Shown: one piece after another, positions 2,036-42,281 of the stretch
Layout of the letters: each line of letters opens with the position of its first letter
Numbering within the stretch: position 1 is the stretch's first letter
Virus record (IMG/VR): IMGVR_UViG_3300028833_000053
Strand: one strand, 5' to 3'
Origin: a virus
Taxonomy: Duplodnaviria; Caudoviricetes
DNA length: 64,000 bases
Position numbers and translations under genes: made by a program
Notes under the pieces: generated by a model
What the model was told of the DNA's origin: nothing
The model's input: the letters and a program-made list of their open reading frames with translations, nothing else
The model's database searches: none

Positions 2036-2896
2036 ATGTCAAAAAAGAGGAATAAGTTCATCCGCTGGGTTTCCCAATTGAAAATATGCACCTTGATGAC
2101 CAAAGAGGATATTAGGGAGGCTGAAAATTTCTACGAGAATAAATAGGGCAGGGAAGAAATAACCATCTGCATGGCTACACATCCTCCAAAGGGAATATTG
2201 TGGAAAAACGCATATTCGGATTTACGAGAACAATGCGATAGGTTTATCCTGGTTCTCGGCGGCGACTACTGCATCAATGGAATTCCGGATGGGTTTCTTG
2301 ACGATAACCATAAACGCGACATTGAATCGGGAAAATTGAAGATTGTCATTGCCGGAAAGGACGGACTTCCAAAAGACAAGGGATGCCAGAACAAGTTCAT
2401 GTTCTATGGTGATTTTCCAGGTTACTACTGCACATTTGACGATGACTTCAGATGGTCGAAGAATTGCGTATATCAATTGATTCAAAAATACGAAGCATAC
2501 AAGAGAAAAGCCATCGTATCCTTTCTTGGATTTAGATATTCAACGAAAAATGGGAAGATAAATACCAAAAAGAAACATCCTGTTCATTGCATTAGATGCC
2601 ATTTAGACTAGCCTTGCCACATAATAGGTGGTGGTTGTTCCGTGTCAAGACCAATTGACTTCAATTTGACGAAAAACGAATTCCTAGATTAGCCTAAAAA
2701 CATGGGTGATGACGAAATTCTGGCTTTGTGGGCATAGCGGAACAATGTGCCATTGATTGCTGTAGACAACACCCATTGTTTAATTGAATCCCAGAAATAC
2801 GATATCAAAATAGCTCTTTGTTACATTCACCGACTTGACGACCATAGGTTCAAGGTATTAAACACATATTCAAACTGGCATTTGGTTACGCCTTGA
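2036..2896 (+). CDS. GT-A fold glycosyltransferase (4 in-frame TAG)
   Basis: ICMATHP, KF..Y..TFDDDF, IIGGGCS, DDEILALW; continuous frame from ATG 2036 to TGA 2896; paralogous to 11974-12639. Confidence 0.75.
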
Positions 2897-2901
2897 TGAC
2901 G

Positions 2902-4017
2902 TTAACTTCCACTCCCGCTACTGGAACCACTGCTTCCTGAATCTCCATGAAGTACAAGAAGTCCGTCAATGCAGTAGCAAATCACTGGGAAGGTATTTCC
3001 TGACGAAGATACACCCAAATACCAAATAGGGGCATTCTATGCCACGTCGGCTCTTGTTATTCCATCAAACCAAACCTCGGTAAGATTATCACATCCGTAG
3101 AATGCCCCCATCCCAATGTCACTCGGAGACGATATTGAATCGGGTATGGCTAATCTTTGCATATTATAAAAGCCTCTAAATACGCCGTCATCAAGATAAG
3201 TTACGGAAGTTCCTATTTGCATTTCCTCAATGTCCTGTTCATATACGGGAAAATAAGCACTCCATGTATTATAACTTACCATTCCTTCAATTAAAGCTGA
3301 ATAACTAACATGCCCTACAGTAGTTAGTGAAGTTTCACGCCCGCGTATTTCCTACGCGCTTCCTTCACTACTGCTTCCCTCACCACCATTCAACACAAGC
3401 AACCCGTCCTGACAATGCACGATTACGGGCCATGTTGCCCAGCCTGAGATTTCAAATCCCAATCCCCAATCAGACCCGCCATGAATGGAAACATAATCAC
3501 GCTGGAAACTCTCCATCCACACTTCTTGTAAACCATTACATCCCCAAAACGCCCCCAACCCTATTGATGGTGTACTATCTATTGTCACGCTCGTCAGACC
3601 TCTGCAGCCGGAGAACGCAGACTCCCCGATGCTCGTCACGCTGTTAGGAATCGTCACGCTAGTCAGGCCGCTGCAATCGGTGAACGCATTCCACCCGATG
3701 CTCGTAACGCTATTGGGTATTGTCATGCTCGTAAGCCCACTGCAATTGTAGAACGCCTGATACCTGATGCTCGTCACGGTGTTTCCAACTTCCACTGCAA
3801 CAACATCTGTTCTTGAATGTCCGTCAATGTTGTCTATCTTTGCCTGTGTCAGTTCCCCAGTTATGGCAACGTCGGAATATGCCGCATCCCTTGATTGCAC
3901 ATTTCCGCTTCTAGGTGCAGTCCACCACAGTCGGGTCAAAGCCGGGTCTCTGTAACCATTTGTCATCACGTTGATGCTACCACCAACCAGTTTGTCCACA
4001 GTAATTTTTATTGCCAT
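2902..4017 (-). CDS. BspA-type leucine-rich-repeat protein, two tandem modules (2 in-frame TAG)
   Basis: Repeats [19 protein letters not shown]; both modules end W.LG..T.PVI..C.DGLLVL.G..GSS; TAG at 3352 and 3037, TAA at 2902. Confidence 0.85.
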
Positions 4018-26860: not shown

Positions 26861-28807
26861 TTAACCAAAGGGATTGTCTCCGCCCTCGTCACCACCTGCG
26901 TCATCTCCACCTTCATCGCCTCCAGCTTCATCTCCACCAGCGGCGTCGTCACCACCTTCTTCTCCGCCACCTTCTCCCCCTTCACCATTCTCCTCATCGG
27001 CGGTTGTGACGTTTATCTTGTTGGTGTTGAAAATGCTATGTGCAAGCAGTTCCTCAAGGCTGGACATAGACATTGTCTTCAACTTCGTAATCTGAGAAGC
27101 GTCAATCTCGCCACCCATGTACTTCTCGCCAATGCCCTCAACCATTGCGGCCATGATACCATCAAACAAACGAAGTTGGTTCATTTCGTTTATCTCTGCG
27201 TCAGTCATTCCCAAGATGTTCTTCTGCGCCCAAGTCTTTGACATTTCATCGCGGTCGGCATACTTGGCGTAAAGATCCATCTTCTGTGTGATTTCCTGGT
27301 TGGAAATGAACTTGGAATAGACGTATGGCGGAGTGAATTCAACGTAGAAGTCACTTTCCTTCATCTGGTTCTTCTGCCATATTCCACGCAGCTTCAAATG
27401 GACGATGAACGAGTCTTGCAACGCCTTTGCGAACTTCATTTGAATGCCAAGTTCCATCTTGGAGAAGGAGAATTCCTCTTGCGTGATTTCGGTTGAAGCA
27501 CGGTAGGAATTGGATTCAAGGTTGTCCCAGCGCGTGTATGGAACGCCAAATTGCTTTATGAGACGTTTCAAGAAGAACTTGAGGTCTTCAATCTGGTCGT
27601 ATTGCGCCGTTGATTCAACAGTGGAAACCGTAGTGCCATCGTTTGCGTTGGATTTCGGGAACACCCAGGAATCCAACATGGAACTTGGATTGTAGGTCTT
27701 GCCAATCATGGAATTGTTGGACTGGCGGTCAATCTTCGCAACCTTCTTTTCGGAAAGTTTCTGCGCAAACTTCCTAACATATTCATGCGCAACCTTGTCC
27801 GCCATTCCACCAGTTGCTATGTTGAAGAGAAGTCTCTGCGGTGCCCTCGTAACGCGGAGAATAACCGCGGCGTCCTGCAAGAGAACCAATTGGTAGTACG
27901 CCTGCTTCACGCCCTCAATGATGGAATAGGTCACTCGCCCATTTGGAGATTTCTTGTCATGCGAGAAATACGTTATCTGCGGGAACAGCAAAGGCACAAC
28001 GTTCTGCGCCGAACTGAAATCCAATCCACGGTAGCCATTGGTGTAAATGGTGTTGAATATGGCGGAGTTCTGCGAGTAGTACGCGGACAAAGTGTATTGA
28101 AGTTCCTGTGCGTACTTGTCAAGGTCAAAGTAGATGCCGCAATTCTCGCCAGTAGCCTGGTTGATGAGAATGTCGTAGAAATCGTTTCTCAACCGCTTCA
28201 CGCCTATGATTCCCAAGGACGGAATGTCGTGGTTGATGATGTTTTCCCAGGCAACCTCGCCCTCAATTACATAGGTGCGGATGATGTCCACAATGTTGTT
28301 GCGGATGTCAAACAACTTGATGAAGTTGGAAAACTCCTTCTAAATGAGTTCCTGTTGCTGTGGCGTTATCTTGTCGGAAATGTCCTCGGAGAAATTCAAT
28401 CGTATGAACTCTCCAGTAGATGACACCGTAAGGAAGTCGGACGCGATTTCGTTTATGCACCAGTTGCACTCGGGGAATTCAGAAATGGCGCGGTACTGCC
28501 AAAGACGTTGGCACTTGTCCGTTATGAGGGGAATGTAGTTGTGGTTGAACTCGTCTGAGACGTAGCCAAAGAACGCCGTGGAAATTCCAGGATTCTGCAG
28601 GGACACGATACCCTGCTTCTCCACAATCTTTTCAATCTTTGAGGTATAGGACTTGAAAGTCTCGAAGTTACGGTTCTATGCGAGAATCTATATCCTGTCC
28701 TCTCCCTCTGGTCCGACGTTTCCCGCGCCCTACGTGTTAAGCTTGTTCATTCTGTCCACGGGGCTCGCGGATGCAGTCAATACGCTATGGTTGTTGTTGT
28801 TCGCCAT
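26861..28807 (-). CDS. Portal protein (T4 gp20-like; 4 in-frame TAG)
   Basis: YR.ISEFPE...INEI, YVIEG, QL.LLQDAAVILR.TRAPQR..F, IEDL.FF..L...GVP; late motif at 28839-28846. Confidence 0.92.
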
Positions 28808-28850: not shown

Positions 28851-29660
28851 TCAACCGCATTCGCAATAAAGAACCTGGACATCGGCGTGCTTGTTGAAAT
28901 CGGAATCCCAGCCATTGAGAGCGTAGATGGACTTCGAGTCCTGACCATTTCCACCCTGACCCATTTCAATTCCGAAGAGACGCTCACCTTCATTGATTCG
29001 CCTCTTCAACTGATCAAGGTCTGAACACCACTTGTCAAGTTCCACATCATAGCCCTCTGCAATAAGACGTTCGGTGTTCTCTATGGTGTTCATGGTGATT
29101 TCGTAAAGACCCATGTAGTTGGCGCGTGAATAGGAACACTCATCGTGGCACTTCTTGGCGCAGTCCAGGATATTTCCCACAACGCGCTTGCGGTATTCCT
29201 GGTCGGATTCCACGTCCTTGTTGTGCCACCCAACAATGCTGTAATGCATGGTTTCCGCGTCAACGGTGATTCCACACGCGATTATCGGCTCTTCAATCTC
29301 AATCTCATCATCGGACTCCGAAAGAACCTTGGGCTTGGGGAAATCGGGGTCGGCATCCATGTTCTTCATATCAATTTTGAACTCGTCAATCCACTTCTTT
29401 CCGGTTATCTTCGTGGTGAAAGTCCCCGCCTTGAAAGAACCCAGGAACAACAGCTCAAAAGTATTGAGGCAGTATTCAAGGTTCCGACGGTTGTTGTCAT
29501 CAAGCTCCTTGACGAATTCCTCGGGGTAGTCATAGTCCTTGTCCTCTGAACACGCCTTTACGACATCCTTGACAAAATCCTTGAAGGGATAGTTCTTCGT
29601 GAGAACCACCACAAAGCTGCTTGAACTTGAATTGCTGACGTAATCACTTCTGATTTTCAT
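28851..29660 (-). CDS. VSNSSSSSF-motif protein 7
   Basis: N-terminus MKIRSDYVSNSSSSSF; ends CECG. Confidence 0.85.
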   Translation of the reverse strand: MKIRSDYVSNSSSSSFVVVLTKNYPFKDFVKDVVKACSEDKDYDYPEEFVKELDDNNRRNLEYCLNTFELLFLGSFKAGTFTTKITGKKWIDEFKIDMKNMDADPDFPKPKVLSESDDEIEIEEPIIACGITVDAETMHYSIVGWHNKDVESDQEYRKRVVGNILDCAKKCHDECSYSRANYMGLYEITMNTIENTERLIAEGYDVELDKWCSDLDQLKRRINEGERLFGIEMGQGGNGQDSKSIYALNGWDSDFNKHADVQVLYCECG

Positions 29661-30135
29661 TGGTTGCCTCCTTCACTACTTCCAACCTGTCCAAAATCCT
29701 TCCAAGGAAGGTGTCTCTATCCCGAAAGGCGTGTTCGGTGTCTGAATCGTCTGGCTCAAAACCAAATTTCTTGAAATACTTGTAGAGGAACGCAAGGTTG
29801 CCCATCGCCTCCTTATCCCAATCATCGCACTCAAAGCCCAGAGCCGTGATTTCCTCGGGCTTCTTGGGGTCTGCGTGGGTGTCGGTGTCACCATCGTACT
29901 CGCCCTGAATGTAGTCCTCGCAGAACTTGCTGGGGTTGTTCCAGTCAAGCCAGTCATCCGGACCGCTGTTGGTGGTGAGAACGCCAACGTTCATGGTCTC
30001 GCCCAATGGGTCATAGGCGCCGTAGATGCAATCCCCGAAATCTTCAAGGAACATCTTGGCCGCCTTGTCGGCATCCTTCTTGATGATGAAGGAGCTGGAA
30101 CTTGAATTGCTGACGTAATCGCTTCTCACTTTCAT
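29644..30135 (-). CDS. VSNSSSSSF-motif protein 6
   Basis: MKVRSDYVSNSSSSSF. Confidence 0.85.
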   Translation of the reverse strand: MKVRSDYVSNSSSSSFIIKKDADKAAKMFLEDFGDCIYGAYDPLGETMNVGVLTTNSGPDDWLDWNNPSKFCEDYIQGEYDGDTDTHADPKKPEEITALGFECDDWDKEAMGNLAFLYKYFKKFGFEPDDSDTEHAFRDRDTFLGRILDRLEVVKEATNENQK

Positions 30136-30153
30136 TTCATTTCTCCTTGATAC

Positions 30154-30618
30154 TCAACCACACTCGTTGAAGAATGTCGATCCACTGGCGTCCGAACCAC
30201 CCGTGACAATATCCACCTCATCGTACTTCGCGTCCAATCCCTTCTCGTTGAGCGCGTCAACAACTCGGGTCTTGTACTCCTTCAAGGTTTCGGTGTCCTT
30301 CATCTTGTTGTCGCCAGACTTCATGTCATAGCCAACCAAAACTTCCTCAACATCTTCTCCCCAATCACGTTGGGCAATCTGGAAGTCAAGCCCAGCATTC
30401 TCAAGAACCCGATACAACACCTCAGAGAAGGATTCCAGCTCAATGAATTCCTCAATGGACTCGCATTCGGAACCGTATTCGTGGTTCAAGTCCTCCAGCA
30501 GCTTGCCCTTGTCCTTCACCAGCTTGTCCATAAGCCCGTCAACGTCGGAAAACACCTTCCCAACTATCACGAAACTGGATGAACTGGAATTGCTAACGTA
30601 GTCTGTGCGGATTTTCAT
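30154..30618 (-). CDS. VSNSSSSSF-motif protein 5
   Basis: MKIRTDYVSNSSSSSF; ends NECG. Confidence 0.85.
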   Translation of the reverse strand: MKIRTDYVSNSSSSSFVIVGKVFSDVDGLMDKLVKDKGKLLEDLNHEYGSECESIEEFIELESFSEVLYRVLENAGLDFQIAQRDWGEDVEEVLVGYDMKSGDNKMKDTETLKEYKTRVVDALNEKGLDAKYDEVDIVTGGSDASGSTFFNECG

Positions 30619-30626
30619 TGTTTACC

Positions 30627-31109
30627 TCAAAGGTCAAGGTCCGAACCACGAATGCTGTTGTAGTCAAAGTGGTCGTCCCCACTGATTTCAATCTGCTTGT
30701 ACTTGCTCTCAAGGATGGTGGCAACCTGCACTGCGTTTGCCAAGTCCTCGCCAAAATCGTCACCGCACTGGCAGTAGACAGAACTATTCTCCTGTTGAAG
30801 AACGAGACGGATGAAGTTCATTTGACCATAGCCATCCTCGGCCATGATGTTGTCGGAGTCAACGTTCACCTCAATGTCCAACTCGTCATCGTACTTCCAT
30901 ATCTCAACGTTCTGTCCAAAGACGGTTTTCGCCTTTTTCTCAAACTCATTCAACTGTTCAAGGCTTTCGCAATGGCAGCGAAGGGTGATTCCATGAACGT
31001 GCTTGAGCAGCTTCATAAAGCCCTCGTCAATGCAGGCTCCCTTGTCCTCAAAGTCAATGATGAAGGAACTGGAGCTGGAATTGCTAACATAGTCGTTTCT
31101 GATTTTCAT
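30627..31109 (-). CDS. VSNSSSSSF-motif protein 4
   Basis: MKIRNDYVSNSSSSSF. Confidence 0.85.
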   Translation of the reverse strand: MKIRNDYVSNSSSSSFIIDFEDKGACIDEGFMKLLKHVHGITLRCHCESLEQLNEFEKKAKTVFGQNVEIWKYDDELDIEVNVDSDNIMAEDGYGQMNFIRLVLQQENSSVYCQCGDDFGEDLANAVQVATILESKYKQIEISGDDHFDYNSIRGSDLDL

Positions 31110-31122
31110 TTCTTGATTCTCC

Positions 31123-31401
31123 TTAATGGTTGTTTGACCACTTTATGAATTCGGGATCCAACATGCACATGGTGTCGTAGAGGCTGCGGACGCATTCCTC
31201 ATCGTTGTCATATCCCTCCACGTTGTGTTCATCGTCATAGCCGTAGAACTCAACGCACTTCAATCCGTTGTGAAGCCCGTCACAGTAGTTCGCTTCAATC
31301 TCGGGCGCACCATACTTCTCGTAGTACCGATTGTAGGTGTCGCAGTCCACTATGAAACTGGACGAACTTGAATTGCTCACATAGTCGTTTCTCAGTTTCA
31401 T
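31123..31401 (-). CDS. VSNSSSSSF-motif protein 3
   Basis: MKLRNDYVSNSSSSSF; ATGA overlap with the upstream gene. Confidence 0.85.
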   Translation of the reverse strand: MKLRNDYVSNSSSSSFIVDCDTYNRYYEKYGAPEIEANYCDGLHNGLKCVEFYGYDDEHNVEGYDNDEECVRSLYDTMCMLDPEFIKWSNNH

Positions 31402-31694
31402 TGCTGCAAAGCCTTTCCAAAGTATTCCTTGATTTCCTTCTTCACCTTGCCCCACACGTCCGACAAGTCTCTATTTCTCCTCAGATTCTCGTTGCTCCAT
31501 CCATAGGGGTCAATGTCAACGTTGAACTCGTTGTCAACGCAATCTATGTCAAAGCCCTCTACGCCAGACAAGCCACAACATTCCTCGAAGAACCCAACCA
31601 ACTCATCCAAGAGTTCATCAACAGAGGAAACAACAAGCGTGTCCTCCGCGTCTGCGCAATTGTCTGCCCAATAGCAATTCACATTGAATGTCAT
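31398..31694 (-). CDS. Acidic hypothetical protein inside the array
   Basis: AAGGAG RBS; lacks the motif. Confidence 0.7.
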   Translation of the reverse strand: MTFNVNCYWADNCADAEDTLVVSSVDELLDELVGFFEECCGLSGVEGFDIDCVDNEFNVDIDPYGWSNENLRRNRDLSDVWGKVKKEIKEYFGKALQQ

Positions 31695-31712
31695 TGTATT
31701 TTCTCCTTTATT

Positions 31713-32283
31713 TCAACCGTTGTCGTTGCCACCGCGGATGTAGGACTCCTTGAAGCGGAGGAAATCGTACAAGGCATCCTCGGACTCAAACATTTCCATG
31801 CAGCTGCCCTCGGACGAAGCCGACTGGTGGTCGATGTAGAACTCATCGTCAATGCAAGTCCAGGCGTGGTAGCCCTTCTCCTCATCGTGGAAAATCTTCG
31901 TCTTGATGGCATCGGCGTTCAGCTTGACGTTGAAGTGAAACTTCTCCTTGCAGACCTTCCGAAGCATGTTCATAGAGACGGTCAAAGTCCTTGCCAGTGA
32001 AGTCCCTCTTGTACTCTGTCTCCCTTCCATCAACTTTCTCCATGAAAAGGTAGAGAAGCTGGATTGCCACGAAGTTCAACTTGCTGTCAAAGGTGGAAGT
32101 GTCCTCCCACTCCCATCCGAACTGATGCTTTCCGTTCTTGTTCGGAATCTCGTATGACATCCAGTCCTCCTCGAACTTGGCATGGTCGTACATGATTCCA
32201 AATGTGTCGTCCGTACCTTCCTTCACAATCACGATGAAGGAAGAGGAACTTGAATTGCTGACGTAATCTCCACGAATCTTCAT
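31713..32283 (-). pseudogene. VSNSSSSSF-motif protein 2, frameshifted near 31971
   Basis: N-part MKIRGDYVSNSSSSSF...DRLY continues in another frame as MLRKVC...YIDHQS...GGNDNG. Confidence 0.65.
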
Positions 32284-32673
32284 TTAGCACTCCCGTCCAC
32301 CATCAACATGACAGGCAATCTTGCAGTCCTTGCCGGTGAGCTTCTTGAGCAAGTCCTTGATGCGCTTCTCAAAGTCCTTCTTGGTCTCGTTGGGCTTCAT
32401 GTCGGCATAGCCCAAGCCAATGCAGTACTCATCGTAGTATTCCTCAATGCCCCTGCAGAAGCGAAGGTCTGGGAACTTGTCCTCAAGGGCTTCAGCCAGC
32501 TCGTAGGTATCCCAGTCATCGTAGTTGTCCTCCTCACCATCCTCCTTATGGTAATCTGACTTCACCTTGTTCAACTTCGCCATTTCAACAATGGCGTCGG
32601 TTCCAAATTCACTGCCAACCACCATGAAGGAGCTGGAGCTGCTGTTGCTCACATAATCTATTCGGATTTTCAT
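32284..32673 (-). CDS. VSNSSSSSF-motif protein 1
   Basis: MKIRIDYVSNSSSSSF; ends GREC. Confidence 0.85.
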   Translation of the reverse strand: MKIRIDYVSNSSSSSFMVVGSEFGTDAIVEMAKLNKVKSDYHKEDGEEDNYDDWDTYELAEALEDKFPDLRFCRGIEEYYDEYCIGLGYADMKPNETKKDFEKRIKDLLKKLTGKDCKIACHVDGGREC

Positions 32674-32687
32674 TTTGCTTTCCTTTA

Positions 32688-32852
32688 TCAAGCCCTTTTG
32701 TCAACAAGTTCTTCAACTATGCCAAGAACTTCAGCGGCGAGAAAACCCACGGCAAGGGGGATTATTGCCCCGGTGTAGATGCACCAGGCACACACCCCTA
32801 TCCTCAATAGGGATTTCGCAATGCTCACAAGAAGATGTCCAGTTGAATTCAC
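32688..32852 (-). CDS. Small membrane protein (54 aa)
   Basis: GTG start with AAGGA RBS: MNSTGHLLVSIAKSLLRIG...LAAEVLGIVEELVDKRA. Not in the ORF track. Confidence 0.6.
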   Translation of the reverse strand: MNSTGHLLVSIAKSLLRIGVCAWCIYTGAIIPLAVGFLAAEVLGIVEELVDKRA

Positions 32853-32880: not shown

Positions 32881-32909
32881 ATTATACCAGATTGTCGTCG
32901 TTTTGTAAA
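32881..32909 (-). promoter_or_regulatory. Sigma70-type promoter for the VSNSSSSSF array
   Basis: TTTACA-17-TATAAT with TG extension. Confidence 0.65.
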
Positions 32910-34078
32910 GTCATTAGCCTCTTTCGGACGTCGGTTATGACCTTCCCCATGAGGTTCTGACCCCTCCAGTTAGATGAATTCAAAATACCCTCGTCCTTTA
33001 TTCCCATCTTTATGCCCCAAATCCCATCAACTGGAGATGCCTCAACAAAGGTCTTTCCATCAAGTTCCGGGTCAAGCAGCTTCTTTCTGTGGTAGCCACA
33101 CTGCTGAAACCTCGCCAAATTGACTTCAAACATGATATTGTAGCGGACTTCATTCCACTTCTCATCGTCATAGCCCTTGACTTCCCTGCCAAGATGTTTG
33201 CACACCAGGGGGTCGTCATCTTCGTCAAGTATCTTCTGGGCGGTTTCCTCGTCGCCAAAGAACTTCGCCTTTGCCCACATGAAAGCCTGCTCGGTGCAGA
33301 AGAACTCATGCCTTTCGCCATTGAACGTCCAGAGGAACTTGCACCTTGCGAAATTGGACATGAAGCTGCCAAAGAAGAACACGTAGTTGTCAGTCACGCG
33401 ATAGCCATACTCGTACATCTTGTCCATCTTCTGCGGAGGGTCTTTGGACATTGGAGTTTTTCCCAATTCACGAAGTTCATTGAACTTCGCAAGGCGTTCT
33501 TCCCTTGTCCCATAAATGTCACGTTCCACGTTTCCTTTCAAAATGCCAGCATCTTCCAAAGATGCGATCACCTTCTTGAACAAACCATCAATCTCCTTGC
33601 GGTACTCGGCGTCCGTATCCCTGAACTTGTCATCAACTACTTTCACATTTGAGCAGTTGTCAAGGTCAAGGAACACGATTTTGTCGTAGCGTCCCATTTC
33701 CGCACAAAGCCTATCATACATCCCACACAAATCCTCGTACCTGATGTCCCCCAAAAGCCCATGTTGCCAAAGATATGTGGTATAGACATAAGCATCTAAC
33801 GGGGTTCGATCTGTCAAGTAGTTTCCATCTGGCATCTCGTCAATAATGTCAAGCTGCTCAACAAGGGTGTCGAAGATGATGTTTTGGCTTTCCCAATTCC
33901 CGTTCCTGTTTATCTTAAGTCCCTTTTCCTCAATCTTCTTTCGGTAGTCGCAACCAACGGTCTTGAACTCGTTTTCAGTTCCCTTGAACCTTTCAACAAT
34001 GTCCTTGATGAACGTGGACTTTCCAGTGTTTTGCGTCCCAACGACGCCGACGATGAATTTTCCTTCTTGCTTGCTCAT
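32882..34078 (-). CDS. P-loop AAA_28/NadR-like kinase fused to a NADAR domain
   Basis: GTQNTGKST and DRTPLD; NADAR SNF...EQAFMWAKA.FFGD, LGREV, VEASP.D.IWGI, GQNLMG. Confidence 0.85.
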   Translation of the reverse strand: MSKQEGKFIVGVVGTQNTGKSTFIKDIVERFKGTENEFKTVGCDYRKKIEEKGLKINRNGNWESQNIIFDTLVEQLDIIDEMPDGNYLTDRTPLDAYVYTTYLWQHGLLGDIRYEDLCGMYDRLCAEMGRYDKIVFLDLDNCSNVKVVDDKFRDTDAEYRKEIDGLFKKVIASLEDAGILKGNVERDIYGTREERLAKFNELRELGKTPMSKDPPQKMDKMYEYGYRVTDNYVFFFGSFMSNFARCKFLWTFNGERHEFFCTEQAFMWAKAKFFGDEETAQKILDEDDDPLVCKHLGREVKGYDDEKWNEVRYNIMFEVNLARFQQCGYHRKKLLDPELDGKTFVEASPVDGIWGIKMGIKDEGILNSSNWRGQNLMGKVITDVRKRLMTLQNDDNLV

Positions 34079-34176
34079 GATGAATTTCCTTTTCATACAA
34101 TTATACACAATGATAAAATGGTAAATATCAACAGGCTAAAAACGAGAAGAAAACCTGTATAAAAGGATAATGAAAT

Positions 34177-41063: not shown

Positions 41064-42281
41064 TCAGTGGAAACAAGGACAATGCGCCGCAGTATCCATA
41101 TCCCTGAACTTCTGACCATCTTCCACCCAGAACTTCTGGAAGTTGAAGTCATCGGCCAAGAAGTTAAACCGCTTGAACCCGGGAAGGTGTTCACAGAAGG
41201 AACAGGTGCATCCCTCACCAAATGCGTTGATGTAGAAACTCAGCTTGAACCCCTCACACGGCTCGCAGTACTTCACCAGATAGGGCTTGCCACGTTCGCG
41301 GTAGTATTCCTGAACCATGCCACAAGAGCAGGAGTCAAAGCCATAGCCAATGCCAATCTTCTCGCAACGCTGAATCACGGTGTCAAGGGTCTCAAACGAG
41401 AGGGTGCAAGGCAGCTTGCTTGCACGTCCAACGGGTTTGCAGCGGAGGAACACGATGTTGCGCAGACCTGCCACCTTGCCACTCTCGATGTCGCCAAGCA
41501 CCTCTTCAACAAACGGAAGGTTTGCGTCGGAAAGCACGATGTGCATGTTGCAGAAATGGGGCGAACGCTCGTTGAACCTGTTGATGGTGTTGTAGCAGAG
41601 GTTCTTGTCGGTTTCATAGACGGACACCGCCACACGTCCACAGTACTTGAGGGTAGCCTCAAATATCTCGTCATTGAGATCTGCGCCAGAAAGGGTGTAG
41701 TTGGGAACGATGCCCATGTCCTCGCGCAGCCAACGGAGCATTTCCACGAAATCGGGATTGGTTTGGACGCCCGTGATGCCAATGGCAATCTGTCCAAGGT
41801 TGCGCGGGAACTTGCATACAACCTTCTGGAAGTCAGCCAGGGTTATGTTGGAGGCGGGCTTGTCGGAGTTGTTCTTGTAGCAGAACTTGCAATTCGCGCC
41901 ACCAACACGGGGGCAACCGTTTATGGAAATCTCGAAGTCAAGGATTTCGGGTCCAAGCGGACACCAAGTTGGGTCCGTCTCGGCGTCCTTGCCAAGCCTC
42001 GCGTTGAAGCCAGTGGTCTTGTTGAAAATCTGGAAGTAGTCAAGGTCCGTGTCATTCACCACGAACTTGGCCGATTCAGAATCCACAACAACCCAATGGC
42101 TGTTCTTGCCATCAACCACGATGTCGTACTCGTACACCTTGGCGTTGACCAGCTCGCTCGGCCTGATGTTCAAGAAAGCCTTTGCGTCCGGAATGGTCTT
42201 TGACGCGAAGCACTGCTTGATGTACTGGTTCACGCACTTTTGCGCGGCGGCCAAAGCCTTGTTGTTTTTGATTTCATCCAT
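41064..42281 (-). CDS. Radical SAM protein with atypical Cx7Cx2C motif
   Basis: PEILDFEISINGCPRVGGANCKFCYK, PNYT, GFDSC, C-terminal Cys cluster. Confidence 0.85.
   Translation of the reverse strand: MDEIKNNKALAAAQKCVNQYIKQCFASKTIPDAKAFLNIRPSELVNAKVYEYDIVVDGKNSHWVVVDSESAKFVVNDTDLDYFQIFNKTTGFNARLGKDAETDPTWCPLGPEILDFEISINGCPRVGGANCKFCYKNNSDKPASNITLADFQKVVCKFPRNLGQIAIGITGVQTNPDFVEMLRWLREDMGIVPNYTLSGADLNDEIFEATLKYCGRVAVSVYETDKNLCYNTINRFNERSPHFCNMHIVLSDANLPFVEEVLGDIESGKVAGLRNIVFLRCKPVGRASKLPCTLSFETLDTVIQRCEKIGIGYGFDSCSCGMVQEYYRERGKPYLVKYCEPCEGFKLSFYINAFGEGCTCSFCEHLPGFKRFNFLADDFNFQKFWVEDGQKFRDMDTAAHCPCFH

Follow-up and report, generated by a model that had tools for sequence, protein, structure and literature searches.

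The 64,000-nucleotide stretch of DNA analysed here (the window), from IMG/VR virus record IMGVR_UViG_3300028833_000053 (Caudoviricetes), carries at 28851-32673 a tandem array of seven minus-strand open reading frames (ORFs). Their products all begin with the leader M-K-[I/V/L]-R-x-D-Y-V-S-N-S-S-S-S-S-F, referred to below as the tag, and nothing can be aligned across all seven proteins beyond about residue 20. From comparative sequence analysis, the tag is considered to be the handle by which one dedicated enzyme of the radical S-adenosylmethionine (SAM)/SPASM type acts on many otherwise unrelated proteins, a reading that is given a probability of roughly 0.55. The tag would be a recognition site and probably also a modification site, with one enzyme serving eleven clients in this genome. 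The candidate enzyme is encoded in the same window (Table 1).

The initial annotation had described seven acidic proteins of 92-269 amino acids (aa) with a common 16-aa N-terminus and divergent bodies, and this description holds. The leader alignment has 14 invariant columns among its first 16, and each of the seven proteins is acidic, with an isoelectric point (pI) of 4.3-4.8. The 48-nt leader DNA has a mean identity of 74% among the seven copies, and the codons of Ser11, Ser14 and Ser15 switch between AGY and TCN. The leader is hence conserved at the protein level, as had been proposed from the alternating serine codons. The source phage genome is complete (433,895 bp) and has direct terminal repeats. 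In its six-frame translation, the tag with SNSSSSSF occurs 11 times, always N-terminally, and the serine-rich string was not found in any other context. These 11 tagged genes are the seven of the array and four dispersed outside the window, two of which (products of 173 and 327 aa) are adjacent and overlap by 4 nt.

The tag extends far beyond this phage. A profile built from 40 tagged proteins retrieved representatives of 21,719 clusters (50% identity level) at E <= 0.001, or 876 when the limit was set to E <= 1e-10, and the match begins at residue 1 in nearly all of the best 150 hits. Among 295 unique proteins, the consensus is M-K-[IVF]-[RK]-x-[DG]-[FY]-V-[TS]-N-S-S-S-[STAC]-S-[FY], followed by a hydrophobic strand. 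Position 7 is F in 86% and Y in 13% of them, position 8 is V in 96%, and position 9 is T in 74% and S in 24%. Viral contigs of 90-437 kb usually hold the tagged genes in tandem, with four to seven paralogs per array. The paralogs appear to be old and individually maintained, because subfamilies with their own C-terminal endings (-SHH, -ECG or -ECWMDG, -GAGRDG, -GEGGY) recur across phages. The bacterial carriers are mainly Lachnospiraceae, Oscillospiraceae and other Clostridia; further carriers were found in Bacteroidota, Desulfovibrionaceae, cyanobacteria, Myxococcales and one candidate-phyla bacterium. Large bacterial members, up to 1834 aa, have BspA-type leucine-rich repeats (LRR) or a BRCT domain behind the tag.

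Known families account for little of this. Scans of 89 tagged proteins against Pfam, NCBIfam and PADLOC gave chance-level hits only, and no family there covers the tag. All seven array proteins weakly matched phrog_7397, a family of unknown function (E 2e-6 to 0.095); the matches lie mostly over profile positions 1-20 to 1-105 of 170, via the tag, which this PHROG shares. A PDB sequence search with tagged gene 7 gave nothing below E 0.5, and a protein-atlas look-up of gene 5 by sequence features returned unnamed viral clusters only, with scores below 0.9. Neither megablast of the region nor tblastn with gene 4 found a match in the cultured-phage collection, where the low-complexity filter probably masks the serine run. 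Finally, searches of the searchable full-text literature for tag strings and phage radical SAM/SPASM systems found no description of a system of tag and enzyme.

The link between tag and enzyme comes from comparative genomics. Loci were scored with a hidden Markov model of the enzyme and an 8-kb flank, and the bacterial denominator consists of the loci retrieved via the tag in which a tag gene was found. Among loci retrieved through the tag, the enzyme was present within 8 kb in 12 of 17 viral and 67 of 77 bacterial cases, in the latter usually next to the tagged gene and in the same orientation. Retrieval through the enzyme gave 80 viral loci, 41 of which had tag genes within 8 kb, often less than 100 nt past the enzyme's stop codon. 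Enzyme-bearing viral records without nearby tag genes were also inspected, and all five that were tested have 3-12 of them elsewhere. The exceptions lie mostly at contig ends or in large phages with dispersed genes. No other gene family, including any protease, transporter or exporter, recurs across the 159 loci. Since homologs of the enzyme adjoin tag genes or lie near them in well over 100 independent loci, the association is supported by comparative genomics. The initial annotation had suggested a constant recognition or modification tag on variable cargo, had singled out the radical SAM gene as a candidate maturase, and had recommended searching the neighbourhoods for such genes. The search left the enzyme as the sole universal partner, and the linkage speaks in favour of both suggestions.

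The pair also occurs in cultured phages. In the cultured-phage collection, the enzyme is present in 168 records and a tagged protein of the SHH class in 175. Both sets consist of the same T4-like genera, namely Klebsiella, Enterobacter, Cronobacter, Citrobacter and Escherichia phages, the last including RB43 and Lw1. For instance, Citrobacter phage Maroon encodes the enzyme CPT_Maroon_163 and, about 20 kb apart, the tagged proteins CPT_Maroon_117 and CPT_Maroon_112, all annotated as hypothetical or 'putative radical SAM'. The Maroon tag has Gly at position 6.

Moreover, the tag has genome-specific dialects. Positions 4 (R/K), 6 (D/G) and 9 (T/S) differ between genomes and scarcely within one. 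Tagged proteins with unalignable bodies from the same locus were identical in 98% of comparisons at position 4 and in 99% at positions 6 and 9, against 68%, 70% and 58%, respectively, for those from different loci. Informative cases were those in which the majority residue of a protein's own genome is not the one seen in its body-relative from another genome. In such cases, the protein sided with its own genome rather than its body family in 43 of 43 at position 4, 99 of 114 at position 6 and 92 of 102 at position 9, these being comparisons that share ancestry and not independent events. Position 7 (F/Y) has no own-genome pattern (66 of 114). Recent gene conversion is unlikely, because the leader DNA has diverged and the serine codons differ. 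One genome-encoded reader constraining all tags in concert would be the simpler explanation of the dialects.

The enzyme family was found by an all-against-all neighbourhood comparison and comprises proteins of about 355-430 aa with radical SAM and SPASM features. The window enzyme is the sole copy of the family in its genome, and one copy was likewise found in each of two complete relatives tested. It is 71% identical to the copy of a related phage and 28-30% identical to the copies abutting tag arrays, to which its homology is full-length (tblastn E 1e-22 to 1e-30, 27-32% identity). The enzyme alignment has 26 invariant columns across 104 sequences, the cluster cysteines included. The first and last of these cysteines, C123 and C134, are invariant in the 104 homologs (consensus CxxxCxFCYQ), and the window enzyme has the three-cysteine radical SAM motif as C-x7-C-x2-C followed by Tyr, the canonical form being CX3CX2C. 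PF04055 gave no hit in the window enzyme at E <= 0.01, and neither did Pfam overall. Of eight homologs scored against PF04055, four reached 24.6-26.8 bits and another 17.1 bits, none of them attaining the 29.5-bit cutoff; the radical SAM homology comes instead from the full-length alignment and from NCBIfam radical SAM models. The SPASM model PF13186 was above cutoff in five homologs (23.4-29.3 vs 21.5 bits) and gave no hit in the window copy, which retains the invariant C318, C342, C360 and C401 without the usual CxxCx5CxxxC block. The nearest curated relatives of the family are the peptide and cofactor maturases TIGR04317, PqqE, MftC, NirJ2 and StsB. Homologs match the NCBIfam models of TIGR04317, PqqE and MftC at E 1e-8 to 1e-11, and the PDB match is PqqE (6c8v, E 0.0018).

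Structure prediction is consistent with a tag that is read from outside. AlphaFold2 modelled tagged gene 7 with a mean predicted local distance difference test score (pLDDT) of 88 and a predicted template modelling score (pTM) of 0.85, and tagged gene 5 with 81 and 0.73. In both models, the hydrophobic strand after the tag packs into the core sheet. Residues 1-11 of gene 7 and 1-13 of gene 5 score below 50 and are left unstructured, so the tag would not be needed for the protein's own fold. An invariant peptide that is dispensable for folding is what would be expected of a site read by another molecule. The bodies had no convincing match among solved structures, either with Foldseek against the PDB (best E 0.12 for gene 7 and 0.53 for gene 5) or in a wide structural alignment (best Z 4.9 for gene 7 and 5.2 for gene 5, the latter for a helical sub-domain only). 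The sole ESM Atlas hit with a template modelling score of 0.5 is an unnamed cluster. Such weak matches do not make the folds new. With no Pfam or NCBIfam model on the tag and no solved fold matching the models, the tag is not an ordinary strand of a characterised domain, which would have been part of the outcome that the initial annotation had regarded as fatal to its proposal.

A complex of the enzyme with tagged gene 5, SAM and two 4Fe-4S clusters was also predicted, together with three controls. The interface score ipSAE was 0.33, against 0.04 for the best of the controls, which lends weak support to an interaction. Of 80 solved complexes, 58 reached the pass mark, against 2 of 110 mismatched pairs; both of these mismatches, but no more than 7 of the 80 solved complexes, passed with a score of 0.60 or below. 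The contact agreement among the three runs was 46% or more, with a partner pLDDT of 63 or above.

By analogy with the action of other SPASM-type radical SAM enzymes, we infer a mechanism in which the enzyme would bind the tag physically and modify it. The flexible first 13 or so residues would thread into the enzyme barrel, where the 5'-deoxyadenosyl radical would strip a hydrogen from somewhere in the invariant [FY]-V-[TS]-N-S-S-S stretch. This stretch would then acquire a cross-link or an oxidation, and the acidic folded body would remain outside the enzyme and provide the specific function. As for the chemistry, an aromatic-X-X cyclophane is one candidate, and serine oxidation or another cross-link would be equally possible. 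Triceptide synthases, also radical SAM enzymes, work on aromatic-X-X motifs, in which they join an aromatic ring to the C-beta two residues on (PMC11499958). Positions 7-9 of the tag, [FY]-V-[TS], have the aromatic-X-X form, which is a formal match only. In contrast, no specific sequence relationship to those synthases appears among the best NCBIfam matches, and the known precursors are short, often with repeated motifs. A triceptide-type cross-link in the tag is pure conjecture.

The proposed system resembles other radical SAM/SPASM systems in part. In those that make RiPPs (peptides made on the ribosome and modified after translation), such as PqqE, MftC and the sactipeptide and ranthipeptide synthases, one enzyme likewise serves several products that share a constant recognition sequence, and the enzyme family described here matches the PqqE, MftC and StsB models at E 1e-4 to 1e-10. 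The products, however, are folded proteins of 92-1834 aa (92-269 aa in the array) rather than short peptides. The constant part consists of 16 residues at the extreme N-terminus, and the carriers are mainly phages and defence-type operons. The protease or transporter of a RiPP locus likewise has no common counterpart in the 159 loci. Another functional parallel is the anaerobic sulfatase-maturating enzyme anSME (AtsB), a SPASM radical SAM enzyme of Ser- or Cys-type sulfatases, which modifies a serine in a short motif of these folded proteins and serves many paralogs. Here, too, one enzyme would serve many paralogous folded proteins bearing a short, conserved, serine-containing motif. Nevertheless, the similarity to anSME is marginal (PDB 4k36, E 0.25; TIGR03942, E 0.021 in 2 of 9 members) and the tagged proteins do not belong to the sulfatases. 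The tag also lacks the substrate motif (C/S)-x-(P/A)-x-R; none of its serines is followed by Pro/Ala-x-Arg.

Several observations weigh against an action of the enzyme on the tag. The window enzyme has no Pfam hit, its CX7CX2C motif is unusual and its C-terminal cysteine region is short of a full SPASM domain, so that activity is an assumption. The distance between enzyme and array is 8.4 kb in the window, about 55 kb in the relative G001 and about 20 kb in phage Maroon; with 8.4-55 kb between enzyme and tagged genes, operon-level coupling is absent in the large phages. Moreover, the enzyme was not found in two viral records with tag genes, which are incomplete (72% and 78%). The genome-level co-occurrence in cultured phages rests on a single T4-like clade. 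The complex prediction, a test that the initial annotation had proposed, set the pair apart from the controls; it was just a weak pass and returned no interface. Finally, some of the tagged bodies are protein-binding modules (LRR, BRCT), which fit a docking adaptor as well as a substrate.

Docking is indeed the main rival explanation, although a distinctly less probable one. The tag would bind the enzyme unmodified, and each body, whether an acidic domain, LRR or BRCT, would bring a different protein or nucleic acid to the enzyme or couple the enzyme to an Avs2-like sensor. The linkage of tag and enzyme serves this explanation just as well, and a genome-specific dialect suits any direct binding. 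The BspA-type LRR or BRCT domains of the large bacterial members, and six bacterial loci with the order Avs2-like STAND NTPase, tagged protein and enzyme, also fit an adaptor. Yet, to our knowledge, the SPASM-type radical SAM enzymes characterised so far (PqqE, MftC, anSME, and the sactipeptide and triceptide synthases) act on the peptide that they bind. Mere docking would rarely call for a run of five invariant serines at a constant spacing from a free N-terminus, and no conserved candidate for a third-party substrate emerged across the 159 loci.

The remaining explanations rank below both modification and docking. An assembly of the paralogs is improbable: N-terminal strands would be exchanged between them, C-terminal Cys and His residues would bind metal, and the linkage to the enzyme would be indirect. 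This would accommodate a tag that is unstructured in monomer models and followed by a core strand, as well as the recurrence of endings such as -SHH, -ECG, -ECWMDG and -GEGGY across phages. In many bacterial and viral loci, however, a single tagged gene stands beside the enzyme; the copy number of 1 to 12 is at odds with a fixed assembly, and the enzyme as only universal neighbour is left unexplained. Neither the metal-binding hetero-oligomer nor the autoprocessing site considered in the initial annotation gained specific support. It is somewhat less probable still that the D...[ST]-N-S-S-S loop forms, with acidic and His elements of the C-terminus, an intrinsic active site on a minimal fold, independent of the enzyme. 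Elements such as Y-G-D-E-D-G ... E-H ... I-S-H-H (SHH class) and Q-G-G-D-G (gene 7) are indeed shared, and the N- and C-terminal strands both lie in the modelled core. These elements, however, are not common to all tagged proteins, whose bodies include LRR, BRCT and many unalignable folds. Furthermore, residues 1-13 are not packed against the body in the models, and position 6 can be Gly in place of Asp.

Least probable of all is a head-targeting role, in which the leader would send the seven proteins into the prohead and be removed by the prohead protease. The array lies directly upstream of the portal gene, and a ClpP-like protease follows the portal gene in a 418-kb relative (L001). The constant short N-terminus on hypervariable small proteins also recalls the internal proteins of T4, which carry a capsid-targeting N-terminal peptide ending in a prohead-protease site, (L/I)-x-E. 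As in T4, small, fast-evolving proteins are encoded in tandem and share a short N-terminus, here beside a head gene. Unlike in T4, the conserved partner is a radical SAM enzyme and not a prohead protease, and none of the seven proteins has a Glu in residues 1-16, so that a cleavage site of the T4 kind is missing from the tag. Arrays elsewhere adjoin the radical SAM gene rather than head genes, and bacterial chromosomes also contain members of the tagged family, with Avs2-like genes as neighbours. Unlike the portal gene, which appears to use a recoded TAG, the array is free of in-frame TAG, and its promoter is of a sigma-70-like, early type. Further candidates were dropped since they have no supporting evidence and leave the enzyme link unexplained: a flavodoxin-like or PP-loop phosphate-binding loop, an actin-fold phosphate-1 motif, a GGDEF or cyclase palm, a pyruvoyl or intein-type autoprocessing site, an N-glycosylation sequon and an amyloid signalling motif.

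Judging by the early-type promoter in this phage and by Avs2-like operons in bacteria, the system would probably serve to take over the host or act in the conflict over phage defence. Six bacterial loci have, immediately upstream of the tagged protein (about 140 aa) and the enzyme, a gene that matches PADLOC Avs2 models at E 1e-18 to 1e-35, with weak NACHT matches in 2 of the 6. The hosts are Cellulophaga baltica (DSM 24729, locus L109), Chryseobacterium, Cyclobacteriaceae, Bacteroidales, the cyanobacterium Mojavia and Myxococcales. The likeness to Avs2 anti-phage systems has limits, as the bacterial proteins are 820-1180 aa long against about 1500 positions in the Avs2 models, and no STAND gene accompanies the array in the phage window. 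In a Butyrivibrio isolate, the tag-enzyme pair lies within a mobile-element region; its neighbours, as read from ORF translations, are presumably restriction-modification genes, a DUF2075-like ATPase, a PIF1-like helicase and TraG. To judge from the genes around it, the module of tag and enzyme is linked to phage-host conflict, on whichever side the phage arrays may act. In a Lachnospiraceae locus, a gene for a Cas3-like/DpdF-like helicase (L099:2010-5246; PADLOC C3a193, E 3e-138) lies immediately upstream of the gene for a tagged LRR protein of 468 aa.

The family defined by the tag ranks among the larger protein families that have yet to be named, and it has one clear partner enzyme that can be put to the test. 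Should the enzyme modify the tag, the reach of radical SAM/SPASM chemistry would grow from small peptides to entire folded proteins, and phages would be seen to bring along a protein-modification system of their own, with as many as a dozen clients in a genome. The place of the pair behind Avs2-like sensors hints that it acts in defence against phages or in counter-defence. Since the classical phages RB43 and Lw1 carry the pair, the question is open to test. A bolder version of the proposed modification, which is considered unlikely, is that the enzyme makes the tag reactive or cross-linked and thereby arms modular proteins, including those with LRR and BRCT bodies; phage arrays would be directed against the host, and the bacterial proteins would be the output of Avs2-like sensors. 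If true, this would be a new protein-level RiPP-like chemistry central to phage-host conflict.

Table 1 Coordinates of the promoter, tagged genes, enzyme gene and related bacterial genes. Positions without a prefix refer to the window; others refer to the record or locus named in the prefix
Feature	Position	Strand	Length	Remarks
Radical SAM enzyme	41064-42281	-	405 aa	Cysteine-rich SPASM/twitch-like C-terminus; cluster motif CX7CX2C
Promoter, sigma-70-like	32881-32909	-		TTTACA, 17 nt, TATAAT, TG upstream; 11/12 matches; consensus match only
Tagged gene 1	32284-32673	-	129 aa	pI 4.7; end -GGREC
Tagged gene 2, frameshifted	31713-32283	-	133 aa in N-terminal frame	N-terminal frame 31882-32283, tail in frame of ORF 31713-32033
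Leaderless ORF within array	31398-31694	-	98 aa	Acidic
Tagged gene 3	31123-31401	-	92 aa	End -SNNH
Tagged gene 4	30627-31109	-	160 aa	Weak phrog_7397 match, E 1.4e-4
Tagged gene 5	30154-30618	-	154 aa	End -NECG
Tagged gene 6	29644-30135	-	163 aa	Weak phrog_7397 match, E 5.5e-5
Tagged gene 7	28851-29660	-	269 aa	End -CECG
Outlying tagged gene	G000:C1 166053-166592	+	179 aa	
Outlying tagged gene	G000:C1 330289-329768	-	173 aa	
Outlying tagged gene	G000:C1 329771-328788	-	327 aa	
Outlying tagged gene	G000:C1 432914-432447	-	155 aa	
Tagged BspA-type LRR protein	L119:8001-10331		777 aa	Eubacteriales genome, beside radical SAM enzyme
Tagged BspA-type LRR protein	L119:10373-15874		1834 aa	Eubacteriales genome, beside radical SAM enzyme
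Tagged BRCT protein	L152:1301-3304		668 aa	Beside radical SAM enzyme
Avs2-like STAND NTPase genes	L109:4974-7613, L112:189-2834, L121:1697-4339, L100:5156-7612, L141:4397-7537, L114:4481-8014		820-1180 aa	

The array genes overlap or abut, no terminator-like site was seen inside the array, and the promoter noted in the initial annotation coincides with a sigma-70-like consensus match. Its gene inventory needed amendment. All seven tagged genes are present; gene 2, however, is frameshifted in the assembly, where one extra base inside TATGAACATGCTT (31974-31962, minus strand) breaks the frame, and the leaderless 98-aa ORF had gone unmentioned. Intact orthologs of gene 2 are found at L001:4305-4868 (188 aa) and L016:1774-2343 (190 aa). 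The C-terminal ends previously reported were recovered for genes 1, 5 and 7 (-REC, -ECG and -ECG) and gene 3 (-NNH), whereas -NDNG of gene 2 (-GGNDNG) is reached solely by reading through the frameshift. The body of gene 1 is akin to that of gene 5, which is the most conserved copy, with 75-92% identity in related phages of 414-437 kb; the orthologs of gene 7 are 40-53% identical. The leaderless ORF is kept in L001, there as two copies. The ortholog of gene 3 in this relative (L001:6463-6756) comes after gene 5, and in the window gene 3 comes before gene 4; the array has thus been rearranged between close relatives. Between the promoter and tagged gene 1, a 54-aa hydrophobic ORF (32688-32852, minus strand) may encode a small membrane protein co-transcribed with the array.

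The array is flanked by a gene for a NadR-like kinase/NADAR fusion on one side and by the portal gene (26861-28624, minus strand) on the other. The portal gene contains a single in-frame TAG, at 28340-28342, where the ortholog of L001 has Gln (LI*KEF vs LIQKEF). As the gene is open only with TAG as a sense codon, its sequence suggests that late genes read TAG in this way. The seven tagged genes end in TGA or TAA, and no in-frame TAG was found in any of them or in the radical SAM gene. The TAG-free array is not treated as significant, since its genes are short and the portal gene itself has just one. Directly upstream of the array, the gene at 32882-34108 (minus strand) encodes what we take, from domain names read from the sequence, to be a P-loop NadR-like kinase fused to a NADAR (YbiA-like) domain. 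In L001, the kinase and NADAR parts are separate adjacent genes (2674-3297 and 3313-3894).

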